NCBI GenBank assembly: GCA_965220815.1 | Contig: OZ244846.1 | Coordinates: 4,212,538 to 4,276,537, forward strand | Direction: 5' to 3' | From: Gammaproteobacteria bacterium | GTDB lineage: Bacteria; Pseudomonadota; Gammaproteobacteria; Eutrophobiales; Eutrophobiaceae | DNA length: 64,000 bases | In this document: piece by piece, positions 1 to 19,226 of the stretch | Numbering within the stretch: position 1 is the stretch's first letter | Layout of the letters: the number at the start of each line of letters is the position of its first letter | The notes under the pieces: model-generated | The model's database searches: none | The model's input: only the letters and a program-made list of their open reading frames with translations | Told to the model about the DNA's origin: nothing | Program-made: the position numbers and the translations under genes

Positions 1-135
1 TGCGAACCCGAAATTCAGTTTGTGAATGTGTCCCGCCGCACCCTTAAAACGGGTGACGAAATCGATGCCTGGGCAGAAGAAGTGAAGAGCCAGCTCAAGG
101 CTGCGCTGGCCAAAGGCCCGGTATCGATCAGATAA
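1..135 (+). CDS. 3' end of the upstream gene, probably BREX brxC/pglY (partial, start outside window)
   Basis: Open frame from base 1 to TAA at 133-135 (...EIDAWAEEVKSQLKAALAKGPVSIR*). Identity is inferred only from its position upstream of pglX in type 1 BREX order. Confidence 0.4.
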   Translation, partial: CEPEIQFVNVSRRTLKTGDEIDAWAEEVKSQLKAALAKGPVSIR

Positions 136-150
136 AGGGCTGCCCGGACC

Positions 151-1863
151 ATGCGAACCGCAGCCAATATCGAAACGCTGCTGGCAGAACTGGATCACTG
201 CGTCGCCGATGATCTTGAGGATCAGGACCTCGACTTCAAACAATGGGAGATGCAGAGCCGCGATAAAGCCGTGAAAACCGTGGTACATATGGCTGTCTGT
301 ATGGCGAACGGGGGGGGTGGTACCGTAGTGTTTGGCGTATCGGATCGCGTTATCGGTAGAGTCAATGCGTTACTTGGAGTACCATCTGAAATCGACGTAA
401 ATCTGCTCAAAAAGGCTGTTTACGATAAAACTGATCCCAAAATCACCCCTGTCTTTGAAAATCTCAGCATACCTGAAGGTACCGGGCGCCTGCTGATAAT
501 GCAGATCTATCCCGGACTGCCACCTTATACAGACAGCGCCGGGAAAGGTACTATTCGGATTGGCAAAGACTGTCAGCCGCTTACCGGCACCCTGCGTCGC
601 AAAATCAGCATTGAAACCGGAGAAACAGACTATACCGCGGAGCTCGTAACAAAAGTCGATAGCAAACTACTTTCTGCCGTAGCACTTGAAGCTCTACGAA
701 ATCAGGCCCGTAAAGAACTTGCGCCAGAAGACCTGATAAACGTCAGTGATACTCAGTTTCTCACCAGCCTGGGGCTGATCAAAGAAGGCAAATTGACTCG
801 GGCTTCATTGTTGATGGCGGGCACCGAAGCTGCAATTCAGAAATACTTGCCAGGTCATTGCTGGACTTTTCTTCAAATGACGTCAGATACAGACTACAGC
901 ATCCGTGAGGATCAAGTCAGCGCTTTACCGTTGTCTGTGCAACGCATTGAAGAAATGTTGGTACCCTTCAATCCTATCACTACTTATGAGCACGGCATGT
1001 TCCACTACGAATATCGTACCTGGCCGGAAATAGCCGTGCGTGAAGCCCTGATGAATGCCTTCTGCCATGCCGACCTACGCATCGCAGGACCTGTGATGGT
1101 CAAACTTTTCTCCGACAGGCTGGAAATCAGTAACAATGGTGGCTTTATTGCCGGCATTACCCCCAATAACATTCTCCACCACCAGCCAGCAGCTCGAAAT
1201 CCGTTGCTGGTTGAGGCGTTGACACGACTTCGTTTGGTGAACCGGACGAATCTTGGTATTAACCGCATGTTCTCAACCTTGCTCATTGAAGGCAAGGAAC
1301 CACCCCGGATACGGGAGATCGGCGAATCCGTGCTGATCAGTTTCCCAAAACGGGAGCTGGATGTGGCTTTCCGTTTTTTCGTTGCTGAGGAAAGTAAGCA
1401 AGACCGCAAACTGGGGGTTGATGAATTATTATTGCTGCAATACCTGCTCCAGCATCCAGAGCTGGACAACAACACTGCCGCAGCACTTTGCCAGCGTAGC
1501 GAAGCGGAAATTCATGTGCGGCTTGTTGCCATGGAAGCAGCCGGCTACATCGAACACAGTGACGCGGATTTGAAGGTTTACTGGTTCATCCACACTGATC
1601 TTTACAACCGTTTAGTGCAGGATGGCAAGAGCAAGACACGTCCGATGATCGACTGGGAAATGGCGAAAACTCGTGTGCTGAACATTTTGATGGAGCGTGC
1701 CCACCGAGGAGAACCGGGTCTGAGCAATCGGGATATCCGGCAGATTACCCGTTTCGATCGTAATCAGGTTTACCGATTAATGACAGAATTACGGCAAGAA
1801 AATCCCGGTTTGCAGTCACCCGGTAAGGGTAAATATGCACGTCATACGTTTAAACAATGCTGA
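151..1863 (+). CDS. AlbA_2 (Schlafen-like 'divergent AAA') + HATPase_c_4 (RecG C-terminal-like) protein with two C-terminal winged-helix-like segments; putative DNA-binding regulator/sensor
   Basis: 570-aa ORF starting 15 nt after the upstream stop. N-terminal segment LEDQDLDFKQW...GGGTVVFGV...IRIGKD is typical of AlbA_2. Central ALMNAFCHADL...EISNNGGF...RNPLLVEAL...NRTNLGINRM is typical of HATPase_c_4. The C-terminus has wHTH-like stretches (LLLLQYLLQHPELDNNTAAALC; LSNRDIRQITRFDRNQVYRLMTEL). Confidence 0.75.
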   Translation: MRTAANIETLLAELDHCVADDLEDQDLDFKQWEMQSRDKAVKTVVHMAVCMANGGGGTVVFGVSDRVIGRVNALLGVPSEIDVNLLKKAVYDKTDPKITPVFENLSIPEGTGRLLIMQIYPGLPPYTDSAGKGTIRIGKDCQPLTGTLRRKISIETGETDYTAELVTKVDSKLLSAVALEALRNQARKELAPEDLINVSDTQFLTSLGLIKEGKLTRASLLMAGTEAAIQKYLPGHCWTFLQMTSDTDYSIREDQVSALPLSVQRIEEMLVPFNPITTYEHGMFHYEYRTWPEIAVREALMNAFCHADLRIAGPVMVKLFSDRLEISNNGGFIAGITPNNILHHQPAARNPLLVEALTRLRLVNRTNLGINRMFSTLLIEGKEPPRIREIGESVLISFPKRELDVAFRFFVAEESKQDRKLGVDELLLLQYLLQHPELDNNTAAALCQRSEAEIHVRLVAMEAAGYIEHSDADLKVYWFIHTDLYNRLVQDGKSKTRPMIDWEMAKTRVLNILMERAHRGEPGLSNRDIRQITRFDRNQVYRLMTELRQENPGLQSPGKGKYARHTFKQC

Positions 1864-1877
1864 ATTTTATGCGTTTA

Positions 1878-1949
1878 AGCATTAAAATCAGCATTAAATA
1901 GAGTTTAATGCTCGAATGTTTGCTGTGAAACATTAAAAAAAGCATTAGA
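1878..1949. promoter_or_regulatory. AT-rich intergenic region with AGCATTAAA iterons and a perfect 9-bp inverted repeat upstream of pglX (candidate operator/promoter)
   Basis: AGCATTAAA at 1878-1886 and 1890-1898, its inverse TTTAATGCT at 1904-1912 (palindrome AGCATTAAA-TAGAG-TTTAATGCT, 1890-1912), and variants ACATTAAAA at 1929-1937 and AGCATTAGA at 1941-1949. RBS AGAGGGAAA lies just before the TTG start of pglX. Confidence 0.35.
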
Positions 1950-1959
1950 GGGAAATAGC

Positions 1960-4900
1960 TTGGAACCTCTGGACAAAACATTAAGAAACCGACTTGAGCG
2001 AGCAATTAAAGATGCGCGTGATACTGCCGAGGACGCCGCTCGCGCTGCACTGGAACAACTCGGCGTGGGCGAAGCCACGCCATTTACCCACCTCAGTGAG
2101 CTGGATCGTGAACTACGCCGCAGACTCCGGGTTCACGGACGGCAGCTGGGCGACCTGCGCCACGCCAGGTCCAAGGTCCAGGAAATCGACCGCCTGATTG
2201 AAAAAGTCGCCTACGAGCACTGGCACCGAATGCTGTTTGCCCGCTTCCTGGCCGAGAACAATCTGCTGATGTATCCCGACCCGGATGATCCGGTGGCTGT
2301 CACCCTCGAAGAGTGTGAAGACCTTGCCGCCGATGAAGGCGCGGCCAACGGTTGGGAACTGGCCGCTCGTTACGCCGCCCGTATGCTGCCGCAGATCTTC
2401 CGGCTCGATTCGCCGGTCTTCCAACTTGTCCTGCCACCGGAGCACCAACAAAAACTGGAGCACCTGGTGGCTGACCTGCCACCGGAAGTGTTCACTGCCT
2501 CAGACAGCCTCGGCTGGGTCTATCAATTCTGGCAGGCCAAAAAGAAGGATGAAGTCAACGCTTCCGAGGTCAAGATCGGAGCACGGGAACTGCCCGCCGT
2601 GACCCAGCTCTTTACTGAGCCTTATATGGTCAGCTTCCTGCTCGACAACTCCCTGGGAGCCTGGTGGGCGGCAAGGAGGCTCACCGAGACTGACTTCCGA
2701 AACGCCGACAGCGAAGATGAACTGCGCGAGAAAGCGTCCATTCCCGGTGTACCGCTTGAATATCTGCGCTTTGTGCAGCAGGAGGATGACGACTGGACAC
2801 CGGCGGCCGGAACCTTTGACGGCTGGCCGGAGCAACTTGCCGACTTGAAGACCCTCGACCCCTGCTGCGGCTCCGGCCACTTTCTGGTGGCAGCCTTCCT
2901 GATGCTCGTACCCATTCGCATGGAACGCGACGACCTTTCTGCCAAGGAAGCGGTGGACGCAGTGCTGCGAGAAAACATCCATGGCCTGGAACTGGATCAA
3001 CGTTGTGTGGAATTGGCTGCCTTCGCCCTGGCCCTGACTGCGTGGAAATACCCAGGTGCTGGAGGTTACCGGGTATTACCGGAATTGAATGTCGCTTGTT
3101 CGGGGTTGTCGATAAGTGCCAAGAAGGAGGAATGGTTGGCTCTGGCGGGAGATGTCACCAATCTTCGAATTGGTCTCGAAGAACTTTACAAGCAATTCAA
3201 AGACGCACCAGTGTTGGGTAGCCTAATCAATCCGGAAGTGAGTCTCGGCAAAGGAGATCTCTTTAAACTGAATTGGGATGATATTGGTCCTCTACTAGAA
3301 GAAGCGCTTTCAGTTGAAGGTGATATAGAGAGGAACGAAATAGGCGTTGTTGCAAGCGGACTTACAAAAGCTGCGACATTGTTAGCTACTCGTTGGCATT
3401 GGGTTGTGACAAATGTTCCGTACTTAGCTCGCGGAAGACAAGATGATCTCCTGAAGGAATATGTCGCAGATTTTTACGATGACGCAAAACAGGATTTAGC
3501 AACCGCGTTTATTGATAGAGCCATCGGTTTCAGCAGACAAGGCGGATCGGTAGGAATCGTTTGCCCTCAGAATTGGCTCTCGCTTCCTGCTTACTCAACA
3601 CTTCGTCGAAGATTATTGAAAACTACTGAGTTTAATGTTCTGGCAAAACTCGGCCCGCGCGCATTTGAAACCATAAGTGGCGAAGTTGTTAACGTCGCAC
3701 TTATGATCATTTCAAAATCACGTATTGGCAATGACCACAAATATGGCGGGGTCGATGTAACATCGACGAGTACAATTCAAGGCAAAGCAGGGGAATTAGC
3801 TGCGTGCCAGTGGCGTTCAGTCAGAAATATTGACGCATTGAATAGCCCTGATTGTCGCATAACGCTTGAAGCACGTGGCGAAGTTCAAACGTTGGGAAAG
3901 TTCGCAATGTCTCCTCAAGGCATAAAGACCGGAGACGATTTTCGATTTCGTCGCAATTGGTGGGAAATCTCCATCACTAAAAGCAGCTGGAGGAAATTTC
4001 AAGGGACTCCTGAATCGGATGAATTGTATGGAGGCATGCGTTACGCCATTTACTGGAGTAATGAAGGAAGGGATTTCGCCCGTCTACAAGGACAAGCTGC
4101 TTGGAGGCATAATGGCATTATAGTCAAGCTAATGGGTGACTTCAGCTTTTCGATTTATTCTGGAGACTTATTCGATAGCAATGTGACTGCTATTGTTCCT
4201 CAACAGGAAGCTCACCAGAAAGTCATTTGGCCGTTTTGTCTTTCAGAAGAATTCAAGAGTGAACTGGGAATCCTTGAGGATGGCATTAAAGTAAACAACG
4301 CAACTGTTGCAAAAGTACCATTCGATTTCTCGCAGTGGTCCAAAATATCTGATGAACAGTATCCCAACGGACTACCTAAACCTTTTACTAATGATCTCAC
4401 TCAGTGGATCTTCCACGGCCATCCATGCGGCTCGGTGGTCTGGAATGAAGCGCGAAAGTGGACCAGCCACGGCCCGTTGCGTACCGATGCATCCGTGCTA
4501 CACGTCGCTGTTGCTCGCCTCCTTGGCTACCGCTGGCCTGCCGAACTGGATACCAACATGGAATTGGCAGACGAGCAGCGCGAGTGGGTCCATCGATGCG
4601 AAGCCCTGGCTAGTTATGCCGATGAAGACGGCGTCGTCTGCATCTCGCCAGTGCAAGGCGAGGCCTCGGCTTCCGACCGTCTTTTGAACCTGTTGGCCGC
4701 CGCCTATGGCGATGCCTGGTCCAACAACACCTTAGCCGCGCTGCTGAAAAGCGCCGATCACGCGGGCAAAACACTGGAGACCTGGCTGCGGGAGAAGTTT
4801 TTCACTCAACACTGCAAGCTATTCCAGCTCCGCAAACTATTCCAGCACCGTCCCTTTATCTGGCACATCTGGGATGGTTTGCGCGACGGCTTTGCCGCTC

Positions 4901-5367
4901 TAATTAACTACCACAAGCTCGACGCCAAACTGCTGGAAACCCTGATCTACACCTACTTGGGCGACTGGATCAGCCGCCAGAAGCAAGACATCGCCAGTGG
5001 CGTGGACGGAGCCCAGGAACGCCTGGCTGCCGCCGAGGTCCTCAAAAAAAATCTGGAGTTGATCCTCGAAGGCGAATCTCCGCATGACATCTTCGTGCGC
5101 TGGAAACCGCTGGAAAAGCAACCCATCGGCTGGGACCCTGACATCAACGATGGCGTGCGCCTCAACATCCGCCCCTTCCTCACCGTTCCCGATGTCGGTA
5201 AGAAAGGTGCTGGTGTCCTGCGCGATAAACCCAACATCAAATGGAATAAGGACCGCGGCAAAGACGTAGAATCCGCCCCCTGGTTCCACAAATTCAAAGG
5301 CGACCGCATTAACGACTACCACTTGACTCTGGCCGAAAAAATCGCCGCACAGGAAGACGCTGTATGA
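1960..5367 (+). CDS. pglX: BREX-1 adenine-specific DNA methyltransferase PglX
   Basis: 1135-aa ORF with a TTG start and upstream RBS. SAM-binding motif I LDPCCGSGHFLV and motif IV-like VVTNVPYLARG. Size and position between brxC and pglZ fit PglX. Confidence 0.9.
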   Translation: MEPLDKTLRNRLERAIKDARDTAEDAARAALEQLGVGEATPFTHLSELDRELRRRLRVHGRQLGDLRHARSKVQEIDRLIEKVAYEHWHRMLFARFLAENNLLMYPDPDDPVAVTLEECEDLAADEGAANGWELAARYAARMLPQIFRLDSPVFQLVLPPEHQQKLEHLVADLPPEVFTASDSLGWVYQFWQAKKKDEVNASEVKIGARELPAVTQLFTEPYMVSFLLDNSLGAWWAARRLTETDFRNADSEDELREKASIPGVPLEYLRFVQQEDDDWTPAAGTFDGWPEQLADLKTLDPCCGSGHFLVAAFLMLVPIRMERDDLSAKEAVDAVLRENIHGLELDQRCVELAAFALALTAWKYPGAGGYRVLPELNVACSGLSISAKKEEWLALAGDVTNLRIGLEELYKQFKDAPVLGSLINPEVSLGKGDLFKLNWDDIGPLLEEALSVEGDIERNEIGVVASGLTKAATLLATRWHWVVTNVPYLARGRQDDLLKEYVADFYDDAKQDLATAFIDRAIGFSRQGGSVGIVCPQNWLSLPAYSTLRRRLLKTTEFNVLAKLGPRAFETISGEVVNVALMIISKSRIGNDHKYGGVDVTSTSTIQGKAGELAACQWRSVRNIDALNSPDCRITLEARGEVQTLGKFAMSPQGIKTGDDFRFRRNWWEISITKSSWRKFQGTPESDELYGGMRYAIYWSNEGRDFARLQGQAAWRHNGIIVKLMGDFSFSIYSGDLFDSNVTAIVPQQEAHQKVIWPFCLSEEFKSELGILEDGIKVNNATVAKVPFDFSQWSKISDEQYPNGLPKPFTNDLTQWIFHGHPCGSVVWNEARKWTSHGPLRTDASVLHVAVARLLGYRWPAELDTNMELADEQREWVHRCEALASYADEDGVVCISPVQGEASASDRLLNLLAAAYGDAWSNNTLAALLKSADHAGKTLETWLREKFFTQHCKLFQLRKLFQHRPFIWHIWDGLRDGFAALINYHKLDAKLLETLIYTYLGDWISRQKQDIASGVDGAQERLAAAEVLKKNLELILEGESPHDIFVRWKPLEKQPIGWDPDINDGVRLNIRPFLTVPDVGKKGAGVLRDKPNIKWNKDRGKDVESAPWFHKFKGDRINDYHLTLAEKIAAQEDAV

Positions 5368-8192
5368 CCTCCAACTACAAAGGAATGCGCTGGCTGAAAT
5401 GCGATCTGCAGATGCAAACACCCGCGGACGCTAAGCATTGGGTTGGAGACCGCCCCGAAGCTGGGAATGAAGCTGCCTCAGCGAAAGCGTTTGCTGAGGC
5501 CTGCTATGAACAACGTCTTGAGGTGGTAGGCATCACTGACCACAACTTTCTCAGCATGGACTTCATTCCTCATCTTCAGTCGGCATTTGAGGAGATTGAG
5601 CAGAAGTTCAACCACAAGATCACCATGTTCCCAGGGTTTGAGTTTGAGGCAGATGTTGGTAAGGGAATGCATGTTCTCTGCCTTTTTGAGCCTGGAACAA
5701 GCACCAATGACATTGACCATATCCTAACGGAATGCGGAGTTGGAAGACCCCGAACTGACGGGGGACGGCTGGCCAAATCAACAAAGCGTCTTCCTGAAAT
5801 TTTGAGTATTGTCCAGAAACCTAATCCAGATGGCACATGGCGAGGCGTTGTCATTCTCCCTCATGTTTTTGAAGACAGTCTTTTCGACAACGATCGGATT
5901 AGTGAGTGGCTTCAACAGGAAGAATATCGAAATCCTGATCTCTTAGCCGTTGAGGTTCCTAGGCCCATAAGTCAAATGAGTAGCGCGTTCCAGAAGTTAT
6001 TTCGCTCTGGTGACGATTGCCATGAAGAGTGGAAACGCATCCGCCCCATTGCAACAATCATGTCTTCAGACAATAAACAGTTCGTCAAAGCTGACAAAGA
6101 TGGGAAGCCTGTCCCAAATAGCATTGGCTATCGATACTCATGGATCAAAATGTCGGCGCCGTCCATCGAGTCGCTCCGACAGGCATTTCTTGATCACGAT
6201 TCGCGCATCATTCTGCCAGAAGATGTAACGACAGACACGCATCCTGCACAGCGCATTCGGCAGGCAGCCATCAAATCGATCTCAATCAAGAACGTCGCGT
6301 TCCTGGCTGACCAGGAGGTTTATTTTTCCTCCAACATGAACTGTGTCATCGGTGGCAGAGGTAGCGGAAAATCCACCCTGCTTGAATACCTGAGAATCAT
6401 TCTAGGCAAGGACAAATCCAAGGATCTTGATGACGGAACCACAGAGAGGATCGAACGAGTACGCGATACGCTGAAGGATCAGCGCACAGAAGTTGAAGTG
6501 TGCTGGACTAGCGCGGATGGCGTGGAAGATCGTATTGTCTGGCAAAACGGCAGCCCCAACGTGCAAGGTCGGGACCTGGCTGATCCCGAAACCTTTTTCA
6601 ATAGCTTACCACTTCGTTTCTACAGTCAGCAGCAGCTCAATCGTCTGACTGAGTCGAAAATTGATGATGGAAGCGTTCGTCAGGCACAACGTCTGCTGGA
6701 GCTGGTAGACGGATTTACCAAAAGTGAATTGGACGATCTGGCAGATCGGGAGCACAAACTCAAGCTGCAAATTCAAGATGCTTTTTCTAATCTTCGCAAA
6801 GCCAAGACACTCAAAAAGGATCAAAGGCGGCTCAAGCAAGAGCTACAAGAACTGGATCGGCAATGGAAGGCGCGTAGCGAGATTCAAGAGGACGCACGGC
6901 GACATCAACTGCTTAAGGCCGAAGCGCGCTACCTCGAAGAGCTTATGGGAACACCCGGAAAACAGTTCACCGACGTCGCCACCATGGCCGAAGCAATCGC
7001 CGATTCGCACGTGCCATTTCCGACTATAGATTCACCTCACTCCACTTGGTTCAGGCAATTCGACGATAATGTAAAGGCTGCCAAGGATTCGTTGGCCAGG
7101 ACTATTCGTGATTCAATCGAGCAATTCGAAGCTGGTGTCGATAACATTAAAGCCAGCGATCCGGTATGGAGTGCGATCCAGAAGGAACTGGATCAGGCCG
7201 ACGCAGAATTTACTGAAGCTTGCGCGGCGAAAGGGCTGACGACGGATGATGTTGGTCACCTTCAGGAAATCAACCAATTGCGCGCCAGGAAGCAGCGTGA
7301 AATTGATCAAACTTCGGACGAAATTCAGCGGCTCACTGAAGCTGCGGGTGACACCGGACTACTCATGCAGCAGTTACACCAAATCTGGAGAGAACAATAT
7401 CAGAAACGTGAAGAAGCTGCTGAGCGAGCTAATGATCTCGCTGTCCTGAACGAAGGTAGGCAGCGCTTTGTCGAAGTCTCGGCGAAGTACCAGCAGGATC
7501 ACAAAAACTTCCGCGAACTCTGGCAGAACTTTGCACCCTCTGATGGGCGGACACGACTGGGGAAGAATTGGGAGAACTGTGGAGAGACGCTATACAAACT
7601 TTTTGTCGGACAGGAGGGTGCCGAATCTCCATGGCAAGTTCTGGAAGGACGTTTGTCTATGGAGCAAAGTTCAGCCGGGCCGGATTTCGAATCGTACAGC
7701 CAAGAACTATTCCAGCACATTCAGGACAATCTTGAACGCTGGGAAAAGCTACGCTGTTCCCGGGTACAAGATACCGTTGACATGAAACTGTTTCGGGCGG
7801 ATGGCTCCACTGCTGGCAGCATCGCTGAGGGTTCACTCTCTGACGGTCAGCGGAATACCGCCGCCCTCGCACTGTTGCTCGCGCAAGAAGGTGGACCGTT
7901 GGTCATCGATCAGCCCGAGGATGAGTTGGATTCCAATTTCGTGTTCCGGGAACTGATTCCAATGCTGCGTAAAGTGAAATTGAAACGTCAACTCATTATG
8001 GCTACGCACAACGCCAATCTGCCGGTAAATGGAGATGCAGAACTGGTCTACGCCTTTGAGGCGCGAAACGGTAAGGGCGAAGCGCTCGCCTGTGGCGGAC
8101 TCGATCAAGCGAATGTAACCAGGGCTGTTCTCGACGTCATGGAAGGGACGGAAGAAGCATTCCGCCGTAGACGAGAGAAATACAATTTTTGA
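5364..8192 (+). CDS. PHP-domain phosphoesterase fused to an SMC/ABC-like coiled-coil AAA ATPase (TrlF-like architecture)
   Basis: 942-aa ORF whose start overlaps the pglX stop (ATGA). N-terminal PHP-like VVGITDHNF...HVLCLFEP. Walker A GGRGSGKST, a long charged coiled-coil region (aa ~430-700), signature-like LSDGQRNTAALALLL, Walker B LVIDQPEDELD, and H-loop-like MATHNANL. Confidence 0.8.
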   Translation: MTSNYKGMRWLKCDLQMQTPADAKHWVGDRPEAGNEAASAKAFAEACYEQRLEVVGITDHNFLSMDFIPHLQSAFEEIEQKFNHKITMFPGFEFEADVGKGMHVLCLFEPGTSTNDIDHILTECGVGRPRTDGGRLAKSTKRLPEILSIVQKPNPDGTWRGVVILPHVFEDSLFDNDRISEWLQQEEYRNPDLLAVEVPRPISQMSSAFQKLFRSGDDCHEEWKRIRPIATIMSSDNKQFVKADKDGKPVPNSIGYRYSWIKMSAPSIESLRQAFLDHDSRIILPEDVTTDTHPAQRIRQAAIKSISIKNVAFLADQEVYFSSNMNCVIGGRGSGKSTLLEYLRIILGKDKSKDLDDGTTERIERVRDTLKDQRTEVEVCWTSADGVEDRIVWQNGSPNVQGRDLADPETFFNSLPLRFYSQQQLNRLTESKIDDGSVRQAQRLLELVDGFTKSELDDLADREHKLKLQIQDAFSNLRKAKTLKKDQRRLKQELQELDRQWKARSEIQEDARRHQLLKAEARYLEELMGTPGKQFTDVATMAEAIADSHVPFPTIDSPHSTWFRQFDDNVKAAKDSLARTIRDSIEQFEAGVDNIKASDPVWSAIQKELDQADAEFTEACAAKGLTTDDVGHLQEINQLRARKQREIDQTSDEIQRLTEAAGDTGLLMQQLHQIWREQYQKREEAAERANDLAVLNEGRQRFVEVSAKYQQDHKNFRELWQNFAPSDGRTRLGKNWENCGETLYKLFVGQEGAESPWQVLEGRLSMEQSSAGPDFESYSQELFQHIQDNLERWEKLRCSRVQDTVDMKLFRADGSTAGSIAEGSLSDGQRNTAALALLLAQEGGPLVIDQPEDELDSNFVFRELIPMLRKVKLKRQLIMATHNANLPVNGDAELVYAFEARNGKGEALACGGLDQANVTRAVLDVMEGTEEAFRRRREKYNF

Positions 8193-8200
8193 GGTATCAG

Positions 8201-8416
8201 ATGATTAAGTCCGTAAATAACTACCCAATATCACAGCTCTTCGATATCGACGCAGCAGTGGTCTACAACATCCCTCGTTACCAGCGAGAATACACTTGGG
8301 GCAAACACCAGCGGGAAAGGCTGTTCGACGATGGACTTGAAAACAATCCAGGCTATTTCCTTGGCTCAATCATCTGTATCAACCAATCGACCGATACACT
8401 TTCTGCAAGAAGGTGA
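8201..8416 (+). pseudogene. Truncated N-terminal fragment of a DUF262 (ParB-like, GmrSD/BrxU-type) gene
   Basis: About 72 codons starting MIKSVNNYPISQLFD...YNIPRYQREYTWGKHQRERLFDD...GYFLGSIICI, which is the conserved N-terminal DUF262 core (QREY.W motif). It then stops at 8414-8416. Full-length family members are several hundred aa. Confidence 0.65.
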
Positions 8417-8419
8417 CGA

Positions 8420-8640
8420 ATGAAAGTGCTTGATCATCTCCTGAAAGCAGTCCGTGACGCCGCTGTCTTCAATTCCAATGTTCAGGTTGCTCCGCCCTGT
8501 ATACTGTGGGGGAGCGCGATCGTCAGGGGCGGCGGCCATCCCCGTTCTTCAGGCACAATTGACTGAACTCATGATCCTGGGTGACTATACTTCTGAAAAA
8601 CATATTGTGCCTGCCATCAGGCTACGTTGCGTGACGCAGC
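8420..8640 (+). pseudogene. Decayed duplicate of the pglZ 5' end (frameshifted relic)
   Basis: ATG at 8420 followed by MKVLDHLLKAVRDAAVFN..., versus MRLLDHLLKAVRDAAVFN... for intact pglZ at 10267. There are 13 mismatches in the first 90 nt by hand alignment. The frame is lost near 8510-8525. Homology resumes in another frame (AAIPVLQAQLTELMILGDY...PAIRLRCV vs AAIPALQAELPELMTLGDY...PAIWLRCV) and ends near 8640. Confidence 0.8.
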
Positions 8641-8717
8641 TAACAGACTGGATCCCGGAAGCAACAACCACCACCTGACCCTGGCAGAAAAACACACTGC
8701 AGTGCGGGAGCATAACC

Positions 8718-9731
8718 ATGCTAAATAGAATTGAGCTTAAAAATTTTGGGCCACTTTCCAAATTAAATTGGAGTGACCTTGGCTCCATCAACCTGATTGT
8801 CGGTGGCAATGGCACAGGGAAGACGTTCCTTTTGAAAGCTGTTTATAGCGCCATGCGGACTCTGGAAGAATACAAACGCGGAGATGAACGTAGAACAGAT
8901 GCTGAGATCCTCGCCGAAAAACTTTACTGGATATTCCAGCCAGACAAGATTGGCGATCTTGTGACCAAGGGGACCGACGGCGCATTGTCTTTTACTGTGC
9001 AAATTGACCGACAGAACTTTATTTACAGCTTTGGTAAGAATACAACCAAGCAAATCTCATCGCTGGAAAACCAGGTCCCGCCACGGTCAAGCAACTCTAT
9101 ATTCCTGCCTGCGAAAGAAGTGCTGTCTTTACATCAGATTATTCTTAAATCCCGCGAACAGGATAAGGCCTTTGGTTTTGACGATACCTATCTCGATCTC
9201 GCCAGAGCACTGCGCCAGTCTACCCAGAAGGGCAAGAATGATGATCAGTTTGCCCAGTCGCGACAGAGCTTGGAAGATATTTTCGGGGGACGGGTCGAAT
9301 ATGATGAGACGTCCGGTCGTTGGCAATTCAAAAAAGGAAATCTGAAGTTCCCTATCGGCGTGACATCCGAAGGCATCAAGAAGCTTGCCATTCTCGATAC
9401 CTTACTTGCTAACCGGTATCTCGATACCAACTCGATTGTATTCATTGACGAACCGGAGTCGTCCCTTCACCCCGTAGCAGTTTCGCAACTTTTGGATATC
9501 GTTGCTGTGCTTGCCAAGAGCGGTATCCAGTTCTTTCTAGCCAGCCACTCTTACTTTGTCGTGAAGAAGCTGTATTTGATTGCTCAAGAGCAGAATCTTT
9601 CCATCCCGGTCATTTCGGCTCATAACAACCAATGGACTCCCGCAGACCTTAGGGAAGGAATGCCGGAAAATTCGATCATTGATGAGTCAATCAAACTTTA
9701 CAAGGAAGAGGTGGGGTTAGTACTTAAATGA
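8718..9731 (+). CDS. Small ABC/AAA_15-21-type ATPase (cassette gene 1)
   Basis: 337-aa ORF with a GGGAG RBS upstream. Walker A GGNGTGKTF, signature-like TSEGIKKLAIL, Walker B IVFIDEPESSLHP, H-loop-like LASHSYF. GC is lower than in the flanks. Confidence 0.8.
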   Translation: MLNRIELKNFGPLSKLNWSDLGSINLIVGGNGTGKTFLLKAVYSAMRTLEEYKRGDERRTDAEILAEKLYWIFQPDKIGDLVTKGTDGALSFTVQIDRQNFIYSFGKNTTKQISSLENQVPPRSSNSIFLPAKEVLSLHQIILKSREQDKAFGFDDTYLDLARALRQSTQKGKNDDQFAQSRQSLEDIFGGRVEYDETSGRWQFKKGNLKFPIGVTSEGIKKLAILDTLLANRYLDTNSIVFIDEPESSLHPVAVSQLLDIVAVLAKSGIQFFLASHSYFVVKKLYLIAQEQNLSIPVISAHNNQWTPADLREGMPENSIIDESIKLYKEEVGLVLK

Positions 9732-10270
9732 GCACACAGCCGATTATCGAATCCGGAATGACATTCGGCCCGTATCCGGAAGGTCAATGTTTTTACATTG
9801 AGAAAAGCAATATCTACGCAGCTATTCAGGAACATGTCCAGATGGCAGAGTTCCTGTTGTTGCGCACAAGTAACGAAAAACCGGTGATCTGGATCGTCGA
9901 GGCCAAATCCAGTACGCCTCATCCCGAAACCCAACCTAAATTCGATGACTTCATCGTTGAGATCCGAGAAAAACTCATTAATGCCTTTTCACTTGGATGG
10001 GCATCTTGCTTGAAAAGGCACCAACATGCCAAATCAGAATTACCCGAAGATTTCAAAACACTTAACCTGTCACAAGTTGATGTGAAGTTTGTATTGGTGA
10101 TAAAAGGACATCACGACGAGTGGCTGCCGCCACTTCAGGATGAGTTAGGGATTGCGCTGCGTTCAACAGTCAGAACCTGGGCCTTTGCCCCGACCTCCGT
10201 TGCGGTAATCAACGATGTGTTAGCACGACAATATGGACTGATACTTCCCGCGAAAGGAGGTGGCAATTGA
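9728..10270 (+). CDS. Hypothetical 180-aa protein with a PD-(D/E)xK-like core (cassette gene 2, putative nuclease effector)
   Basis: The start overlaps the ATPase stop (ATGA) and the stop overlaps the pglZ TTG start (TTGA). PVIWIVEAKSS resembles an E-x-K restriction-endonuclease-fold motif. No other motif was recognised. Confidence 0.55.
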   Translation: MSTQPIIESGMTFGPYPEGQCFYIEKSNIYAAIQEHVQMAEFLLLRTSNEKPVIWIVEAKSSTPHPETQPKFDDFIVEIREKLINAFSLGWASCLKRHQHAKSELPEDFKTLNLSQVDVKFVLVIKGHHDEWLPPLQDELGIALRSTVRTWAFAPTSVAVINDVLARQYGLILPAKGGGN

Positions 10271-12612
10271 GATTGCTTGATCATCTCCTGAAAGCAGTCC
10301 GTGATGCCGCAGTCTTCAACCCCGAGGTTCAGGTAGCTCCGGCCTGTATTCTCTGGCCGGATCGTGACCGTCAGTGGGAGGCCGCCATACCCGCTCTTCA
10401 GGCCGAACTGCCTGAACTCATGACCCTGGGCGACTATGCGCCCGAAGAACGTATTGGGCCTGCCATCTGGTTACGTTGCGTGATTGCCGGTCAGGTTCCC
10501 GATGTCTCTCTGCCCGAGGACCGGAGGCCGATTTTTTATCTACCGGGCATCAGCCGCCAAGACCTGAGGGCAATAGAAAGCTGCCCGGATCACTTGAAGC
10601 CGCTTGCCGAGTTGCAATACCGAGGCGTGATCTGGTCACAAATCAATGCCAAGGACTGGACGGTCCTGGCCTATCTGAAATCAGATCAAAGTGGGCTTGG
10701 GCTTGATGTAGCCCAAGACAACGATGCCAGGAATGCCATGCAGCTTGCGTTGCGTCGGCTTCTTGACGAGGATGTCGCCTTACTGAAAGGTAAGCGCCTG
10801 GATAAGGACTACTTCAACACCCTGTTGACGGGTGACCCGGTTCGCGATCTCCTGCAATGGCTCGACCAGGGGGATGCGTTCCAGGCGAGTCGTGGCGAGA
10901 ACGAATGGAAAGCCTTTGTCGAGGTGTGCAAATCCCAACTGGCCTTCAACCCCCACAACGAAGGCGTCCTGGCCGGGAGCGCCAGGCTCGCAAACCACGA
11001 AGGCCCGTGGCAGGCTGTTTGGGAGCGTTACTGCGAGGCTCCTCAGCACTATCCGAACATCCCCGCTCAAATCAGAAGGTGTCAGCCGCCAGAATTTGAT
11101 CTGTTCACAGATGAGCAGGTGGCAGAGGGCTGGCCCCAATGGAATGACATCCAGGAAAAAGAACTTTGCCATAGCCTTATGGGCCTTGACAAAGTGCCCC
11201 CGCACCAAGCGAGAACCAAGATTGAAGAGTTGGAAAAACAGCACGGCTACAGGCGTTATCTGGTCTGGGCCGAACTGGACGAAGCCCCTTTGGCCCGCGC
11301 ATTGGAACACTTGGCGACCATTGCCGAGAGTACGAAAACCAGCCTTGCTGCAGGTTCGGTGGACGATCTCGCAACGGGTTATCGCAGTCAAGGGTGGCGG
11401 GTCGATGACGGAGTGATTAGGGCTTTGGCGCAGGTGGATAGCCCTGCTGACTTTGAAGCCGTGACGATCGCCATCCGGTCCGTTTACCTGCCATGGCTGG
11501 AAGAATCAGCCCGCTATCTCCAGAAACTGGTTGATGACGCATCTTACCCGGGAGGCACCTGCCTGACGGTTAAGGAAACGCCTTTCAGCTTCGGGGACTG
11601 CGTTCTGTTCGTCGACGGACTCCGTTTCGACGCCGGAAAGCGTCTGTTCGAGTACCTGGATGCATGTGGGCTTGAGATCTCCGAGGAACCGACCTGGGCG
11701 GCCTTGCCTAGCGTAACTGCTACAGGCAAGGCGGCAGTTACCCCAGTGAGAGATATGATTCGGGATGTGGACGGCAGCCCTGATTTCGAGCCTTCGGTAG
11801 CGGATACCGGCCAGTCGTTAAAGGGAGGTTACCATCTGAAGAAGTTATTGACCGACGCTGGATGGTCGATCCTGGGACACTCTGCTGATGGCGATGGTCA
11901 GGGCATGGCTTGGTGTGAATTCGGGGATATCGACCACGAAGGTCACGACCGTGGGTGGAAACTGGCCAAGCACATTGACGCTCTGATTCTGGAAATCAGA
12001 GACCGTATCATGGGACTGTTGGCAGCAGGTTGGAAGCGCGTCAGGGTTGTGACAGATCATGGCTGGTTGTTGCTACCCGGGGGATTGCCAAAAATCGAAC
12101 TTCCCAGCGCACTGGTGGAAAGCAAGTGGGGACGCTGCGCCTCATTGAAGGCGGGCGCCTCGACCGAGGAACGGCTTTATCCATGGTATTGGAATCCAAA
12201 CCAGTATTTTGCCCTCGCTGATGGCGTGTGTTGTTTCAAGAAAGGGGAAGAGTACACCCACGGCGGCCTGAGCCTGCAAGAGTGCCTGACGCTGCAATTG
12301 ACGGTAGCGCAAGGCGAATCTGCCCAGGCAGCGGTATCTGTCGAATTTACCGACGTGGTGTGGAAGGGTTTGCGCTGTACTGTTGCCGTGGATGGCAACT
12401 TCTCGGACTTATCACTTGATGTCCGCAGCCAAGCCGGTAATTCTTCATCCAGTGTGGTCGTTGGCGTTAAGCTGCTTCAAGACAAGGGAACAGCCTCCGT
12501 GGTCGTCGAGGACGAGGACATGGAGGGGCGTGAAGCAACGGTTGTCCTGATTGATACCAATGGATCGCTGGTTGCGCAAATCGCCACGGTAATAGGTGGA
12601 GGTAATACATGA
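10267..12612 (+). CDS. pglZ: BREX alkaline-phosphatase-superfamily protein PglZ
   Basis: 781-aa ORF. PglZ-domain hallmarks VLFVDGLRFD and VVTDHGWLL. Lies immediately upstream of brxL with overlapping junctions. Confidence 0.9.
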   Translation: MRLLDHLLKAVRDAAVFNPEVQVAPACILWPDRDRQWEAAIPALQAELPELMTLGDYAPEERIGPAIWLRCVIAGQVPDVSLPEDRRPIFYLPGISRQDLRAIESCPDHLKPLAELQYRGVIWSQINAKDWTVLAYLKSDQSGLGLDVAQDNDARNAMQLALRRLLDEDVALLKGKRLDKDYFNTLLTGDPVRDLLQWLDQGDAFQASRGENEWKAFVEVCKSQLAFNPHNEGVLAGSARLANHEGPWQAVWERYCEAPQHYPNIPAQIRRCQPPEFDLFTDEQVAEGWPQWNDIQEKELCHSLMGLDKVPPHQARTKIEELEKQHGYRRYLVWAELDEAPLARALEHLATIAESTKTSLAAGSVDDLATGYRSQGWRVDDGVIRALAQVDSPADFEAVTIAIRSVYLPWLEESARYLQKLVDDASYPGGTCLTVKETPFSFGDCVLFVDGLRFDAGKRLFEYLDACGLEISEEPTWAALPSVTATGKAAVTPVRDMIRDVDGSPDFEPSVADTGQSLKGGYHLKKLLTDAGWSILGHSADGDGQGMAWCEFGDIDHEGHDRGWKLAKHIDALILEIRDRIMGLLAAGWKRVRVVTDHGWLLLPGGLPKIELPSALVESKWGRCASLKAGASTEERLYPWYWNPNQYFALADGVCCFKKGEEYTHGGLSLQECLTLQLTVAQGESAQAAVSVEFTDVVWKGLRCTVAVDGNFSDLSLDVRSQAGNSSSSVVVGVKLLQDKGTASVVVEDEDMEGREATVVLIDTNGSLVAQIATVIGGGNT

Positions 12613-14654
12613 TTGAAATGGACCAGATCGACAAGAAGGCGGCCACCTCGCTAGACGGGTACTTGGTTCGAAAGGATTTGGTTCGAACGTTCAGCCGCCA
12701 ATTTCCGGTGCCGACGTACGTAGTCGAGTTTCTACTCGGCCGATATTGCGCCAGCACCGAGCAGGACGAGATCGATGAGGGTCTTGAGATCGTCCAAAGG
12801 CAACTCAAATCAAGAACGGTCAAAGCCGGGGAAGAAGAACTCTTCAAGGCCCGGACCAGGGAAAATGGCGAGATCAAAATCATCGACCTCATTACCGCTC
12901 GCCTGGATGCGAAGACCGACTCCTACATCGCAACACTACCCAGCTTGCGGCTAAACGATGTCCGCATCAGCCCCGAACTGGCGAATGAACATGAACGGAT
13001 GCTGACAGGCGGCTTCTATGCTGAAATCAGTCTGAACTACGATGCGTCTATCGCGCAGGAGAGTAAAGGAAGACCCTTCGGTGTTGCGTCGCTCCGGGAA
13101 ATCCAGCTATCCAAACGGGATGTGCTAGATATCCTGGCAGAGACCCGCAAGTCCTTCACTACCTGTGAGTGGATTGAGTTTCTGCTTCGCTCCGTCGGCA
13201 TTGAGCCAAATGGATTATCTTTGCGGCAACGCGATGTCTTGATGCTGCGAATGGTTCCTTTTGTCGAGAGAAATTACAACCTGGTGGAACTCGGGCCGAG
13301 GGGAACTGGCAAAAGCCATCTCTTCCAGCAGGTTTCTCCGTATGCTCACTTGATTTCCGGTGGTAAAGCAACAGTTGCCAAATTGTTCGTCAACAACGCA
13401 ACAGGCCAGCGCGGATTGGTCTGCCAATACGATGTGGTCTGCTTCGATGAGGTGTCCGGCATCTCCTTCGATCAGAAAGATGGTGTGAACATCCTGAAGG
13501 GATACATGGAGGCCGGCGAATTCAGCCGTGGCAAGGAAAGCATCCGTGCCGATGGCAGCATCGTCCTGGTTGGGAACTTCGATGTGGATGTTGAACACCA
13601 GCAGCGCATCGGGCACCTGTTTGGCCCCATGCCCCCCGAGATGAAAGACGACACCGCATTCATGGATCGAATCCACGCATATGTGCCCGGCTGGGATGTG
13701 CCCAAAATCAGCAAGGAGCTTTTGACGAATCACTTCGGTCTTGTGAGCGATTTCTTGTCCGAGTGCTGGAGTCAGCTCCGCAATCAAAGCCGTGTCGGTG
13801 TACTGCAAGGCCGGGTGTTTTTCGGTGGCGCTCTGTCGGGCCGAGATACAAATGCGGTCAACAAAACCGTAAGTGGATTGCTCAAGCTTCTCCATCCCGG
13901 CGAGGGCGAGGTGGCCGACGAGGACATCGAGTGGGCCGTCCATATCGCCATGGAGGCAAGACGTCGCGTCAAAGAACAGCAGAAACGCATTGGCGCGGCG
14001 GAATTCCGTAATACTCACTTCAGCTACGCAATGGGTGACGACGGCGTGGAAAAGTTTGTCTCGACGCCGGAACTGCAAAGCGAAAACAGCATTGGGAGCG
14101 ATCCCCTTGAGCCGGGTCAGGTCTGGACCATCTCGCCGGGTGGCGGTGAAGAACACCCAGGGCTCTACCGCATTGAGATCAATGAAGGCCCGGGTACCGG
14201 TGTCAAGATACTCAACAAGCCCGTGCCCCCCGCCTTCAGGGAAAGTATGGGCTACGCCGAGCAAAACCTTTACGCGCGGTCAATGCAATTGGTCGGCGAC
14301 AAGGACCCTCGACACCACGAATTCACTGCGCAACTCCGAGCCTTCGACGCGTCCAAGTCCGGTACGAAACTCGGCATGGCGTCACTCATTGCGCTATGTA
14401 CTGCTTTATTGAAGAAAAGCGTGCGCGGAGGTCTCATCATCGTTGGAGAAATTAATCTGGGTGGCTCTATTGAACCTGTTCACAACCCCGTTACGATTGC
14501 CGAGATTGCGGTTGAAAAAGGTGCGTCTGTGCTATTGATACCGGTTGTTTGCCGTCGGCAACTTTATGATTTGTCCGATGACATGGCTACCAAAATTGAC
14601 ATTCAATTTTATTCCGATGGTAGGGATGCCCTGTTGAAGGCAATGGTGGAGTAA
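12609..14654 (+). CDS. brxL: BREX Lon-protease-like protein BrxL
   Basis: 681-aa ORF overlapping the pglZ stop. N-terminal LVRKDLVRTFSRQFPVPTYVVEFLLGRYCAS. AAA motifs ELGPRGTGKSHLF and VVCFDEVSG. C-terminal Lon-protease-like domain (LGMASLIALCTALL...GEINLGGSIEPV). Confidence 0.9.
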   Translation: MIEMDQIDKKAATSLDGYLVRKDLVRTFSRQFPVPTYVVEFLLGRYCASTEQDEIDEGLEIVQRQLKSRTVKAGEEELFKARTRENGEIKIIDLITARLDAKTDSYIATLPSLRLNDVRISPELANEHERMLTGGFYAEISLNYDASIAQESKGRPFGVASLREIQLSKRDVLDILAETRKSFTTCEWIEFLLRSVGIEPNGLSLRQRDVLMLRMVPFVERNYNLVELGPRGTGKSHLFQQVSPYAHLISGGKATVAKLFVNNATGQRGLVCQYDVVCFDEVSGISFDQKDGVNILKGYMEAGEFSRGKESIRADGSIVLVGNFDVDVEHQQRIGHLFGPMPPEMKDDTAFMDRIHAYVPGWDVPKISKELLTNHFGLVSDFLSECWSQLRNQSRVGVLQGRVFFGGALSGRDTNAVNKTVSGLLKLLHPGEGEVADEDIEWAVHIAMEARRRVKEQQKRIGAAEFRNTHFSYAMGDDGVEKFVSTPELQSENSIGSDPLEPGQVWTISPGGGEEHPGLYRIEINEGPGTGVKILNKPVPPAFRESMGYAEQNLYARSMQLVGDKDPRHHEFTAQLRAFDASKSGTKLGMASLIALCTALLKKSVRGGLIIVGEINLGGSIEPVHNPVTIAEIAVEKGASVLLIPVVCRRQLYDLSDDMATKIDIQFYSDGRDALLKAMVE

Positions 14655-14720
14655 TCCGAATTAAGGCCCGTGTCTAAATAGAATAAAATCCGAAAACCAC
14701 CACTCTCACCATCTGATTAC

Positions 14721-15506
14721 ATGATTTCAAAAGACTCGAAAGACTTCATCGGCTCAATCGCACGCTGCATGAAAGTCATCACGGCGTTTGACGCTGAAGA
14801 TGTTGAAATGTCTCCCGCGGACGTAGCCGCGAAAACCGGCCTGACGCGGGCGACGACCAGGAGGGTATTGTTGACCCTGACTTCCCTGGGGTATGTGGCC
14901 AGCGACGGCAAGTGGTTCCGGTTGTCGCCAAAAATGCTCGACCTGGGTTTTTCTTACCTGGCTTCCATGCAGATTGGCGAGGTGGTCCAGCCGATTATCA
15001 ATGCCGCGAGCAAGAAGGTTGGAGAAACCTGCGCGATCTCGGTGCTGGATGGCCAGGATATTGTCAGTATAGCCCACAGTTCGTTCGATCGTTTCGACCA
15101 GGTGACGTTTTATCCCGGGACACACATGCCGGCCTGTATTTCGGCTGCCGGGAGGGTGATGCTGGCGAACCAGAACACGGAAAAACTCGATGCGTTTCTA
15201 AGGAATGTCAGGTTCAAACGCTACACACCTAAGTCGATTGCCGCCCGAGCGGATTTAATCAAGGAACTGGAACAGGTAAGGCAGCAGGGATATGCACGCG
15301 TTGACGGAGAACTCGAAGTCGGCCTGTATACGCTGGCGGCGCCGATTTTTAACGTTTATAAACATCCCATCGCCGCAGTAACTTTCGGCGGCAATGTAGC
15401 CCGCATCAACGATGAGAATATCGATAACTACCTGCCTGAATTATTCAATGTAGCGCAGAGGATAGGCCAGTTGCTGCCCAACAACCATTCACATTGGATT
15501 TGGTGA
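14721..15506 (+). CDS. IclR-family transcriptional regulator
   Basis: 261 aa with an N-terminal wHTH (MSPADVAAKTGLTRATTRRVLLTLTSLGYV) and a C-terminal IclR effector-type domain. Confidence 0.85.
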   Translation: MISKDSKDFIGSIARCMKVITAFDAEDVEMSPADVAAKTGLTRATTRRVLLTLTSLGYVASDGKWFRLSPKMLDLGFSYLASMQIGEVVQPIINAASKKVGETCAISVLDGQDIVSIAHSSFDRFDQVTFYPGTHMPACISAAGRVMLANQNTEKLDAFLRNVRFKRYTPKSIAARADLIKELEQVRQQGYARVDGELEVGLYTLAAPIFNVYKHPIAAVTFGGNVARINDENIDNYLPELFNVAQRIGQLLPNNHSHWIW

Positions 15507-18005: not shown

Positions 18006-19220
18006 TCATGAGAGTTTATCCAGATACCAGCGGGTGAATTCACGATTCATCACTTCCTGCTCGGAATACGGTCCTGGCCGGTAGCGGGAAGATAATATCC
18101 CCGCCTGGTTATTTTCCGTGATAATCGCATCCTGTTTTAAGGTGACATCCCATACCCAGGACACGCGCTCCGGTACATAATCGGCCCCCTCTTCTGCATC
18201 AGCATCCACCAGCCAGATGGCTTCCACATCCGTGAGCAGTTCGGTTATGGGGGTAAACCGCAATAATACGGCATGGTCATTGGATGCGAGCAGGTAGTTC
18301 AAATAATTGAACGCCACATAGGTCACACCCCCGTCGTACTCCCTGAACTTCCCCATCAAAGTCGAAACGGGCCGGCCATCCTGACTTTCGGTTAAAAATC
18401 CTTCCTTGATTGGCATCCGGGTCATCCCCGCGCCATGATCGAAGGTACCCTCCAAGCAGGGATGTCCTAATGCCTCAACCTGAGTCCTCCAGGCGTCGAG
18501 TTCCACCGCATAGTCCCGGCATGCGGCTTCGGGTCCGGAACCCATACCCGCACCGGCAGCCAGCAATTTCAGTTCCGAATGCACGGAGCAGTATTCCGGG
18601 TGAGCCGGGACGCAGTGATAACATTCGATAAAATTCTCCACCACCAGTTTCCAGTTGGCGCGGGTCGGCAGTTCCAACCGCCGTGCGATCTTTGCGTTTT
18701 CCATTCCGTGAAAGGACAGGTATTCGCGGCACGCCTCGTCCAGGCCGTCAGGTTCGTCAAGCTCATCCCCTACGGACACAAAAATCAGACCGTCAAGCAC
18801 CTTGCTCCGGCAGGCGTGCAGACCGTACCCTTCCGCGGAAAAACCTTCGGGCATCAAGCGCGCGCTGCGCAGGCTGCCGTCCAGGTTATAGGTCCAGGCA
18901 TGGTAGGGACAGACCAGCGCGGATTTTCTCCCCTCACTGTCCAGACATACCCTTGAACCCCGGTGGCGGCAGACATTGTAGTGGGCATGGATGTCGCCGT
19001 CCCTGCCGCGTACGATAATGATTTCTTCCCCGCAGATCCTGAACAGGAAATAATCCCCGGCGGCAGGAATCCTGGAAACATGGCCGGCCAGGTGCCATAA
19101 CCGGTCCAGGACCCTTTCGCGATCGAGTGAAAATACGTCCGGGTCACCGTAAAAGGGCTGTTGCAGCGTATGGCCGGCTACATGGCTGTCGACCAGGTCC
19201 TGTATGTTTACCTTTGGCAT
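18006..19220 (-). CDS. Rieske [2Fe-2S] non-heme iron oxygenase, alpha-subunit type
   Basis: Rieske motif CRHRGSRVC...CPYHAWTY. The C-terminal catalytic domain has ECYHCVPAHPEY. Confidence 0.85.
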   Translation of the reverse strand: MPKVNIQDLVDSHVAGHTLQQPFYGDPDVFSLDRERVLDRLWHLAGHVSRIPAAGDYFLFRICGEEIIIVRGRDGDIHAHYNVCRHRGSRVCLDSEGRKSALVCPYHAWTYNLDGSLRSARLMPEGFSAEGYGLHACRSKVLDGLIFVSVGDELDEPDGLDEACREYLSFHGMENAKIARRLELPTRANWKLVVENFIECYHCVPAHPEYCSVHSELKLLAAGAGMGSGPEAACRDYAVELDAWRTQVEALGHPCLEGTFDHGAGMTRMPIKEGFLTESQDGRPVSTLMGKFREYDGGVTYVAFNYLNYLLASNDHAVLLRFTPITELLTDVEAIWLVDADAEEGADYVPERVSWVWDVTLKQDAIITENNQAGILSSRYRPGPYSEQEVMNREFTRWYLDKLS

Positions 19221-19226
19221 ACGGGT

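Follow-up and report, generated by a model that had tools for sequence, protein, structure and literature searches.

We analysed a stretch of 64,000 nucleotides (nt) from a Gammaproteobacteria bacterium (GTDB family Eutrophobiaceae; contig OZ244846.1, positions 4,212,538 to 4,276,537 of the forward strand), hereafter the window, in which a type 1 bacteriophage exclusion (BREX) operon contains two small overlapping genes between pglX and pglZ. Coordinates are window positions throughout, and all genes and gene remnants described are on the + strand. The first gene (8718..9731, ATG start) encodes an OLD/PtuA-like ABC ATPase of 337 residues, matched by the PADLOC model PDLC04214 of HEC-02A, and the second (9728..10270, ATG start) a PD-(D/E)xK-like putative nuclease of 180 residues, matched by the model PDLC04221 of HEC-02B. 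The stop codon of HEC-02A overlaps the start codon of HEC-02B by 4 nt (ATGA, 9728-9731), and the stop codon of HEC-02B overlaps the TTG start of pglZ (TTGA, 10267-10270), with an AGGAGG 6 nt upstream of this TTG. Judging from these overlaps, translation of HEC-02A, HEC-02B and pglZ is coupled. An earlier note on this DNA had reported the two open reading frames, their motifs and both overlaps, all of which are present in the sequence and its translations, and it had correctly described an ATPase and a PD-(D/E)xK-like protein inserted between pglX and pglZ of the BREX operon. The overlapping pair almost certainly represents an anti-phage module, and very probably a divergent member of HEC-02, being one of several accessory modules inside this operon.

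The assignment to HEC-02 is based on profile matches that cover both proteins. In PADLOC-DB, PDLC04214 matches the ATPase with an E-value of 1.7e-162 (538 bits), residues 1-335 aligning to model positions 1-336 of 338, and a second HEC-02 ATPase model, PDLC04213, matches the same protein at 2.7e-63. The small protein is matched by PDLC04221 at 1.9e-69 (231 bits), residues 1-172 covering positions 1-169 of the 171 in the model, and by four more HEC-02B models of PADLOC at 1e-26 to 2e-7. The two genes are adjacent and on one strand, as HEC-02 requires. HEC-02 (Hma-embedded candidate 02), described by Payne, Hughes, Fineran & Jackson (bioRxiv 10.1101/2024.01.29.577857) and included in PADLOC-DB v2, is composed of an ABC ATPase and a NERD-like PD-(D/E)xK protein; it lowers phage plaquing in E. 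coli, and both genes are needed. The NERD claim of these authors is one of structural resemblance and concerns the Dickeya protein only. Their supplementary table lists a two-family cassette embedded in BREX, DISARM and restriction-modification (R-M) systems, with a count of 347 and the remark 'Incorporate into HEC-02 model', and we infer that this merger explains the extra HEC-02 models that match the window proteins. The earlier note had taken the pair for uncharacterised, and perhaps for a novel kind of effector or of two-gene system; this claim is not supported, since both proteins find a confident, end-to-end profile match in a named system. The system is already catalogued and, as far as can be read from sequence, the window pair is an additional divergent member of it, not a separate one.

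The HEC-02 pair that was tested against phages originates from Dickeya dianthicola NCPPB 3534. The window HEC-02A is 29% identical to the Dickeya ATPase over 297 residues (E 7e-39). For the small proteins the link is at the level of profiles: Dickeya HEC-02B matches PDLC04221 at 8.9e-6 over residues 1-147, nearly its full length (hmmscan), and the alignment of a 66-sequence profile of the B family with Dickeya HEC-02B (hhalign) has a probability of 74% and an E-value of 2.8e-5 over 135 columns, with the ExK motif in register.

Two labels of the Dickeya proteins and their models deserve mention. In PADLOC-DB, PDLC04145 and PDLC04146 seem to have exchanged names when compared with the remaining HEC-02 models: the 169-residue nuclease-like protein of Dickeya best matches PDLC04145 ('HEC-02A'), and the 342-residue ATPase best matches PDLC04146 ('HEC-02B'). 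In RefSeq the small Dickeya protein is labelled 'cysteinyl-tRNA synthetase', which is ill-fitting for a nuclease-like protein of 169 residues.

HEC-02A contains the intact motif set of an ABC ATPase: a Walker A motif (GGNGTGKTF, residues 29-36, with K35), a signature or C-loop (TSEGIKKL, residues 216-223), a Walker B motif (IVFIDEPESSLHP, residues 240-247, with D244/E245) and an H-loop (ASHSYF, with H277). The residues of these four motifs are invariant in 30 relatives. In Pfam the protein matches AAA_21 (5.2e-23) and AAA_15 (1.1e-17), and its nearest solved proteins by sequence are an OLD-family nuclease, PtuA and AriA (AriA in the PDB at 1.9e-3). Its predicted fold is PtuA-like: a Foldseek search with the AlphaFold2 model returned first PtuA of Septu and of retron I-A, with E-values of 6e-8 to 1e-6, a probability of 1.0 and a template-modelling (TM) score of about 0.5, followed by Rad50 at 1e-5. 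The earlier note's analogies with Septu, PARIS and AbiL were therefore apt, PtuA being the best PDB fold and OLD, PtuA and AriA the sequence matches.

The family of HEC-02B forms 856 clusters when grouped at 90% identity; at 50% identity there are 1068 representatives, 728 of which score E <= 1e-10. Among the 150 matches listed, nearly all relatives are stand-alone proteins of 160-185 residues. The segment PVIWIVEAKSS contains E58-A-K60. In 66 relatives, 32-57% identical to the window protein, residues E8, F13, E25, E58, K60 and A166 are invariant, and E41 (>=90%), S62, P64, K82 and R97 are nearly so. The AlphaFold2 model, of high confidence (pLDDT 89, pTM 0.88), has an α/β fold in which E41 starts strand 42-48 and E58-x-K60 ends strand 51-60, the predicted structure thus presenting the acidic residues and the (D/E)xK motif on adjacent β-strands by which PD-(D/E)xK proteins are recognised. 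The top weak matches of this model in the PDB are all PD-(D/E)xK folds, namely the FokI cleavage domain, Cap4, HamA, BsmI, Mus81 and Avs3/4, of which the FokI domain is the best (E 0.014, probability 0.93, TM 0.35), and the weak matches in BFVD are HamA-like proteins and endonuclease I. HEC-02B is therefore best described as a PD-(D/E)xK-like putative nuclease by motif, with a predicted fold that supports this weakly but concordantly.

The association of the two genes was followed in 64 genome loci found with HEC-02B and 80 found with HEC-02A; loci carry labels of the form L###, and a separate sample of 80 BREX-1 loci is numbered L142-L221. A HEC-02A homologue ends at the HEC-02B start in 63 of the 64 B-found loci, the remaining one ending at a contig edge, and HEC-02B lies directly downstream of HEC-02A in 78 of the 80 A-found loci. 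HEC-02A and HEC-02B are an obligate pair across many phyla. The hosts include Gammaproteobacteria, Desulfobacterota, Cyanobacteria, Verrucomicrobiota, Chloroflexota and others. HEC-02A is 61-89% identical across the loci of these hosts, which indicates wide horizontal spread, and relatives with the same lengths of 337 and 180 residues are 74-96% (HEC-02A) and 62-93% (HEC-02B) identical to the window proteins. The genomic contexts vary. In 13 of the 64 HEC-02B loci the pair occupies the pglX-pglZ interval of BREX-1 and in nine it is found inside a type I R-M locus, between hsdM/hsdS and hsdR; the neighbours of the other loci are of various kinds, housekeeping genes as well as dispersed defence genes (MADS, DpdJ, GajB, BrxHI and DrmMI among them). 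Searches of 72,556 plasmids gave one HEC-02B homologue, and 50,697 phage records gave none. The plasmid copy (L222) is at 18072-19630 of the 29-kb Comamonas thiooxydans plasmid pNR4028_IMP1, its HEC-02B being 57.5% identical to that of the window; it is flanked by a recombinase-family gene and IS26, and its annotation reads no more than 'ATP-binding protein' and 'hypothetical protein'. Given this variety of contexts (BREX, R-M, plasmid and other neighbours), the HEC-02 pair is a mobile module of two genes that stands on its own and is frequently, though not in every case, nested inside another defence system.

The genomes nearest to the window are metagenome-assembled genomes of Gammaproteobacteria. 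The nearest relative is represented by two loci (L001 and L142) on one 4.9-Mb contig, CBDBDW010000002.1, with a pglZ 5' end 98% identical and a HEC-02A 89% identical to those of the window. On this contig the HEC-02 genes adjoin a type I hsdR; the BREX locus is about 1.1 Mb away and has another insert, of 1 kb, in its slot. The R-M placement in the closest relative indicates that the pair has changed host systems among genomes that are closely related. The HEC-02 pair of the window was probably acquired horizontally as well. Its GC content is 0.463 in HEC-02A and 0.468 in HEC-02B, compared with 0.564 in pglZ, 0.539 in brxL and 0.556 in the whole window. The lower GC of the cassette had been seen in the earlier note, which overstated the contrast: instead of the 60-68% given there for pglX, the high-GC parts of this gene reach 0.57-0.615 in 400-nt windows.

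Several points weigh against the reading of the pair as HEC-02 and of its small protein as the effector nuclease. HEC-02B has no BLASTP similarity to Dickeya HEC-02B, the profile links between them are only moderate, and the tested HEC-02 is distant. The searched literature contains no report of a test on any member of the HEC-02 subfamily of the window, and HEC-02 itself rests on a preprint. On the structural side, the AlphaFold2 model of HEC-02A is of moderate confidence (pLDDT 65, pTM 0.72), and the fold comparison foreseen in the earlier note succeeded for one protein only: HEC-02A gave significant matches to PtuA, but the HEC-02B model gave nothing at E <= 1e-3 in the PDB or BFVD. Pfam, including NERD (PF08378), gave no match at E <= 1 to the 66 HEC-02B members beyond single chance hits. 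As for the mechanism, a complex of HEC-02A with HEC-02B, its trigger and its substrate are postulated.

Among the alternatives, the least improbable, though still very unlikely, is that the pair is an integral BREX accessory, such as a helper nuclease dependent on PglZ or BrxL, and not an autonomous system. No promoter-like sites were found on the + strand in 1-15500, and + strand terminator-like matches in this interval are few, weak and at chance level, with none in 6400-10300. The overlapping stops and starts, together with the lack of such sites, suggest that the pair is transcribed together with the BREX genes. The accessory explanation draws on this TTGA coupling to pglZ and on the absence of a promoter of its own, and also on the other BREX loci: besides the recurrence of the same slot in 13 of the 64 loci, in L002 and L003 HEC-02B runs directly up to the pglZ start, and 0-7 nt separate the two in L010, L024 and L059. 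However, 51 of the 64 loci are outside BREX, nine of them in type I R-M systems and many beside housekeeping genes, and one copy is on a plasmid; the Dickeya pair defended E. coli on its own; and in the closest relative the pair is in the R-M locus far from BREX. These observations argue for a HEC-02 module that is hosted by the BREX operon and does not depend on it.

It is very unlikely that the pair constitutes a genuinely novel two-gene system or type of effector and only looks like the known ATPase-nuclease pairs. Such an explanation would fit a HEC-02B for which no Pfam or NCBIfam family was found, and for which PDB sequence searches with two family profiles gave chance matches or none, as it would the lack of BLASTP similarity to the tested protein and the generic RefSeq annotation of the plasmid copy. 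It is largely refuted by the dedicated PADLOC HEC-02 models, which match both proteins end to end. Moreover, the two-family cassette of BREX, DISARM and R-M loci was folded into the HEC-02 model by its authors, the profile links to the tested HEC-02B align the catalytic motifs, the architecture is the same and HEC-02A is clearly homologous to the tested ATPase.

Just as improbable is a role of HEC-02B as a non-catalytic adaptor or antitoxin-like partner, the ATPase (of AbiEii/AAA_21 type) being the toxic effector. Pfam names AAA_21 a 'putative AbiEii toxin', and the Foldseek support for a nuclease fold of HEC-02B is weak. Yet the acidic and lysine residues at the PD-(D/E)xK site positions are invariant across 66 relatives that share only 32-57% identity, and the top weak folds (FokI, Cap4, HamA, BsmI, Mus81, Avs) are without exception PD-(D/E)xK nucleases. 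ABC ATPases of the PtuA and AriA type, to which HEC-02A is related, regulate a partner nuclease.

The host locus is a type 1 BREX system with co-oriented brxC, pglX, pglZ and brxL. The operon is already under way at the start of the window: position 1 falls inside brxC, of which the last 44 codons and the stop are present (1..135; located by tblastn with the BrxC of L003, residues 1122-1165 of which are 86% identical to window positions 1-132), and brxA, brxB and most of brxC fall outside. The first embedded accessory gene, in the brxC-pglX interval, encodes a 570-residue Schlafen/AlbA_2 and HATPase_c_4 protein (151..1863; Pfam SLFN_AlbA_2 8.3e-16, HATPase_c_4 1.2e-17), with an equivalent position in L002 and L024. 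A 2026 survey of BREX loci (PMC12839542) found proteins combining Schlafen and histidine-kinase-like parts in at least 1017 taxa, widespread in such loci. The BREX-1 methyltransferase gene pglX follows (1960..5367; PADLOC PglX E=0, 1708 bits). PglX residues 500-800 are 23-36% identical to relatives and the flanks 74-94%, and the GC content is 0.43-0.48 at 3000-4400 and 0.57-0.61 in the flanking parts of the gene, so that this central segment looks like an exchanged target-recognition (specificity) region. Next comes the second embedded cassette, a single gene for a TrlF-family, Ppl-like ABC-type ATPase of 942 residues (5364..8192; NCBIfam NF045780 TrlF_fam_ATP 2.1e-165, 553 bits against a cut-off of 350; PADLOC Ppl 1.2e-53, a partial match to this anti-phage protein), whose start overlaps the pglX stop as ATGA; in L150 a TrlF-family gene alone fills the pglX-pglZ slot. 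Downstream of the HEC-02 pair are pglZ, of BREX-1 type B (10267..12612; NCBIfam BREX_PglZ_1_B 9.8e-293, PADLOC PglZ E=0), and brxL (12609..14654; Pfam BrxL_ATPase 3.3e-131, PADLOC BrxL 1.4e-300). Rfam and tRNA scans of the window gave no matches, and by megablast 8193-10300 found no counterpart in any complete E. coli genome.

The 529 nt between the TrlF-family gene and HEC-02A consist of three gene stubs. The first is the N-terminal part of a GmrSD-like type IV restriction gene, of HEC-06/Orf5 type (8189..8416, 75 residues; Pfam GmrSD_N 5.9e-12, PADLOC Orf5/HEC-06). A complete gene of this kind, of 597 residues with GmrSD_N and GmrSD_C, fills the gap between TrlF and pglZ in L157, L152, L144, L147 and L184, and L157 is 93% identical in nucleotides to window positions 8000-8405. 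The window copy has lost about 1.57 kb by a deletion at a CTG microhomology (near 8403-8405), which fuses the stub to the 17 nt that preceded the old pglZ start. The second stub is a decayed pglZ 5' end (8420..8640, codons 1 to about 72, two frameshifts), recognised by its similarity to 10267-10485, to which it is 82-84% identical with two 1-nt indels; by tblastn it matches PglZ residues 1-30 and 39-72. The third is a pglX 3' end (about 8657..8717), detected by local alignment to nine pglX 3' ends (z = 5.9-14.1; none of 500 shuffles equalled the observed score). It encodes the PglX C-terminus ..NNHHLTLAEKHTAVREHN and provides the GGGAG ribosome-binding site of HEC-02A; in L003, L024 and L059, the HEC-02A start lies 8 nt past an intact pglX stop. 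The earlier note had described the cassette as bracketed by two copies of the pglZ 5' end. The second copy at 8420-8640 exists, but the simple bracketing does not, as three stubs are found upstream. That the HEC-02 pair is itself a decaying passenger without present function, like these stubs, is the least credible of the alternatives: the slot clearly gathers dead remnants, but both open reading frames are full length, with 337 and 180 residues as in the relatives, and their motifs are intact.

Because three stubs are found between TrlF and HEC-02A, we propose that a unit 'pglX 3' end / HEC-02A / HEC-02B / pglZ' was joined behind an older arrangement 'pglX / TrlF / GmrSD-like / pglZ'. Compared with the sampled pglZ 5' ends, the intact copy of the window included, the pglZ stub is 78-83% identical to all of them and thus gives no signal of whether its donor lineage was that of TrlF or of HEC-02. 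The intact pglZ 5' end is 98% identical to that of the nearest relative, where the cassette is missing from the slot. Scars made of a pglZ 5' end and a pglX 3' end between stacked cassettes are also present in L002, L010, L013 (twice) and L017, and, in the separate sample of 80 BREX-1 loci, in L177, L191, L200, L205 and L214; in L013, two nearly identical open reading frames of 169 codons fuse PglZ residues 1-67 to the PglX C-terminus. Both gene ends are present in 67 loci of this sample, and in 64 of them the pglX-pglZ gap measures 1.0-9.3 kb, the slot being therefore almost always occupied in the BREX clade with this PglZ type. The scars around the cassettes can be read as a record of slot rebuilding. 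They suggest that the slot is remodelled by the joining of whole 'pglX 3' end / cassette / pglZ 5' end' segments from different BREX loci. The conserved ends of the BREX genes would then act as recombination handles, allowing homology-driven swapping and stacking of cassettes with no integrase. In addition, the HEC-02 subfamily of the window, whose effector cannot be aligned by BLAST to that of Dickeya, may respond to a different cue, such as the inhibition of BREX or R-M. The segment-joining and different-cue readings are tentative, and we consider them rather doubtful.

A mechanism can be proposed on the basis of the genetics of Dickeya HEC-02 and of the analogy with Septu (PtuAB), PARIS (AriAB) and Gabija (GajAB). 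HEC-02A would dimerise or oligomerise on ATP and act as both sensor and regulator, restraining HEC-02B, the small nuclease, as long as no phage cue is perceived. HEC-02B would then cut nucleic acid, which may result in a direct block of the phage or in abortive infection. Within the BREX transcript, the pair would provide a second defence layer, co-expressed with BREX and independent of it. A single BREX operon combines a Schlafen-like gene, a TrlF/Ppl-like ATPase, a dead GmrSD-like gene and the HEC-02 pair, and the locus offers a compact natural example of layered immunity. The main value of the present assignment is for annotation: Pfam, NCBIfam and RefSeq leave the effector as a 'hypothetical protein', only PADLOC names it HEC-02B, and pairs of this kind are easily mistaken for new systems. 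The HEC-02A of this widespread clade, 74-96% identical across several phyla, would be a reasonable subject for biochemistry.

Compared with known systems, the window pair most resembles HEC-02, with which it shares an ABC ATPase of about 340 residues followed by a PD-(D/E)xK/NERD-like ExK protein of about 170-180 residues, and the embedding in other defence systems; unlike the tested pair of Dickeya, which comes from a survey of Hma-embedded genes, it is embedded in BREX. With Septu, including the effectors of retron type I-A, it shares the logic of an ATPase and a small nuclease, PtuA being the closest solved fold to HEC-02A. However, PtuB is an HNH protein and HEC-02B, whose only matches in PADLOC are HEC-02B models, matches no PtuB model, the PtuA hidden Markov models match HEC-02A only partially (E about 1e-13), and HEC-02A is shorter, at 337 residues, the listed PtuA chains having 336-550. 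PARIS, whose known trigger is Ocr, likewise combines an OLD-family ABC ATPase with a nuclease. The PADLOC AriA model matches HEC-02A at 1.4e-23, the matching model being essentially a generic AAA_21 profile; AriB, in contrast, is a Toprim/DUF4435 protein, and HEC-02B has no AriB match in PADLOC and no Toprim match in Pfam. Membership of Septu, PARIS or AbiL was rejected on the PADLOC results, the partner nuclease being of another kind. PARIS is also often nested in BREX (PMC12839542). The same survey describes, in 594 taxa, OLD-type ABC ATPases with alternative nucleases (PD-(D/E)xK restriction endonucleases, HNH and PIN) embedded in BREX. Its classes are comparative-genomic and without per-family names, and it is by class description that the window pair, with an OLD/PtuA-like ATPase and a PD-(D/E)xK-like partner inside a BREX operon, resembles them.

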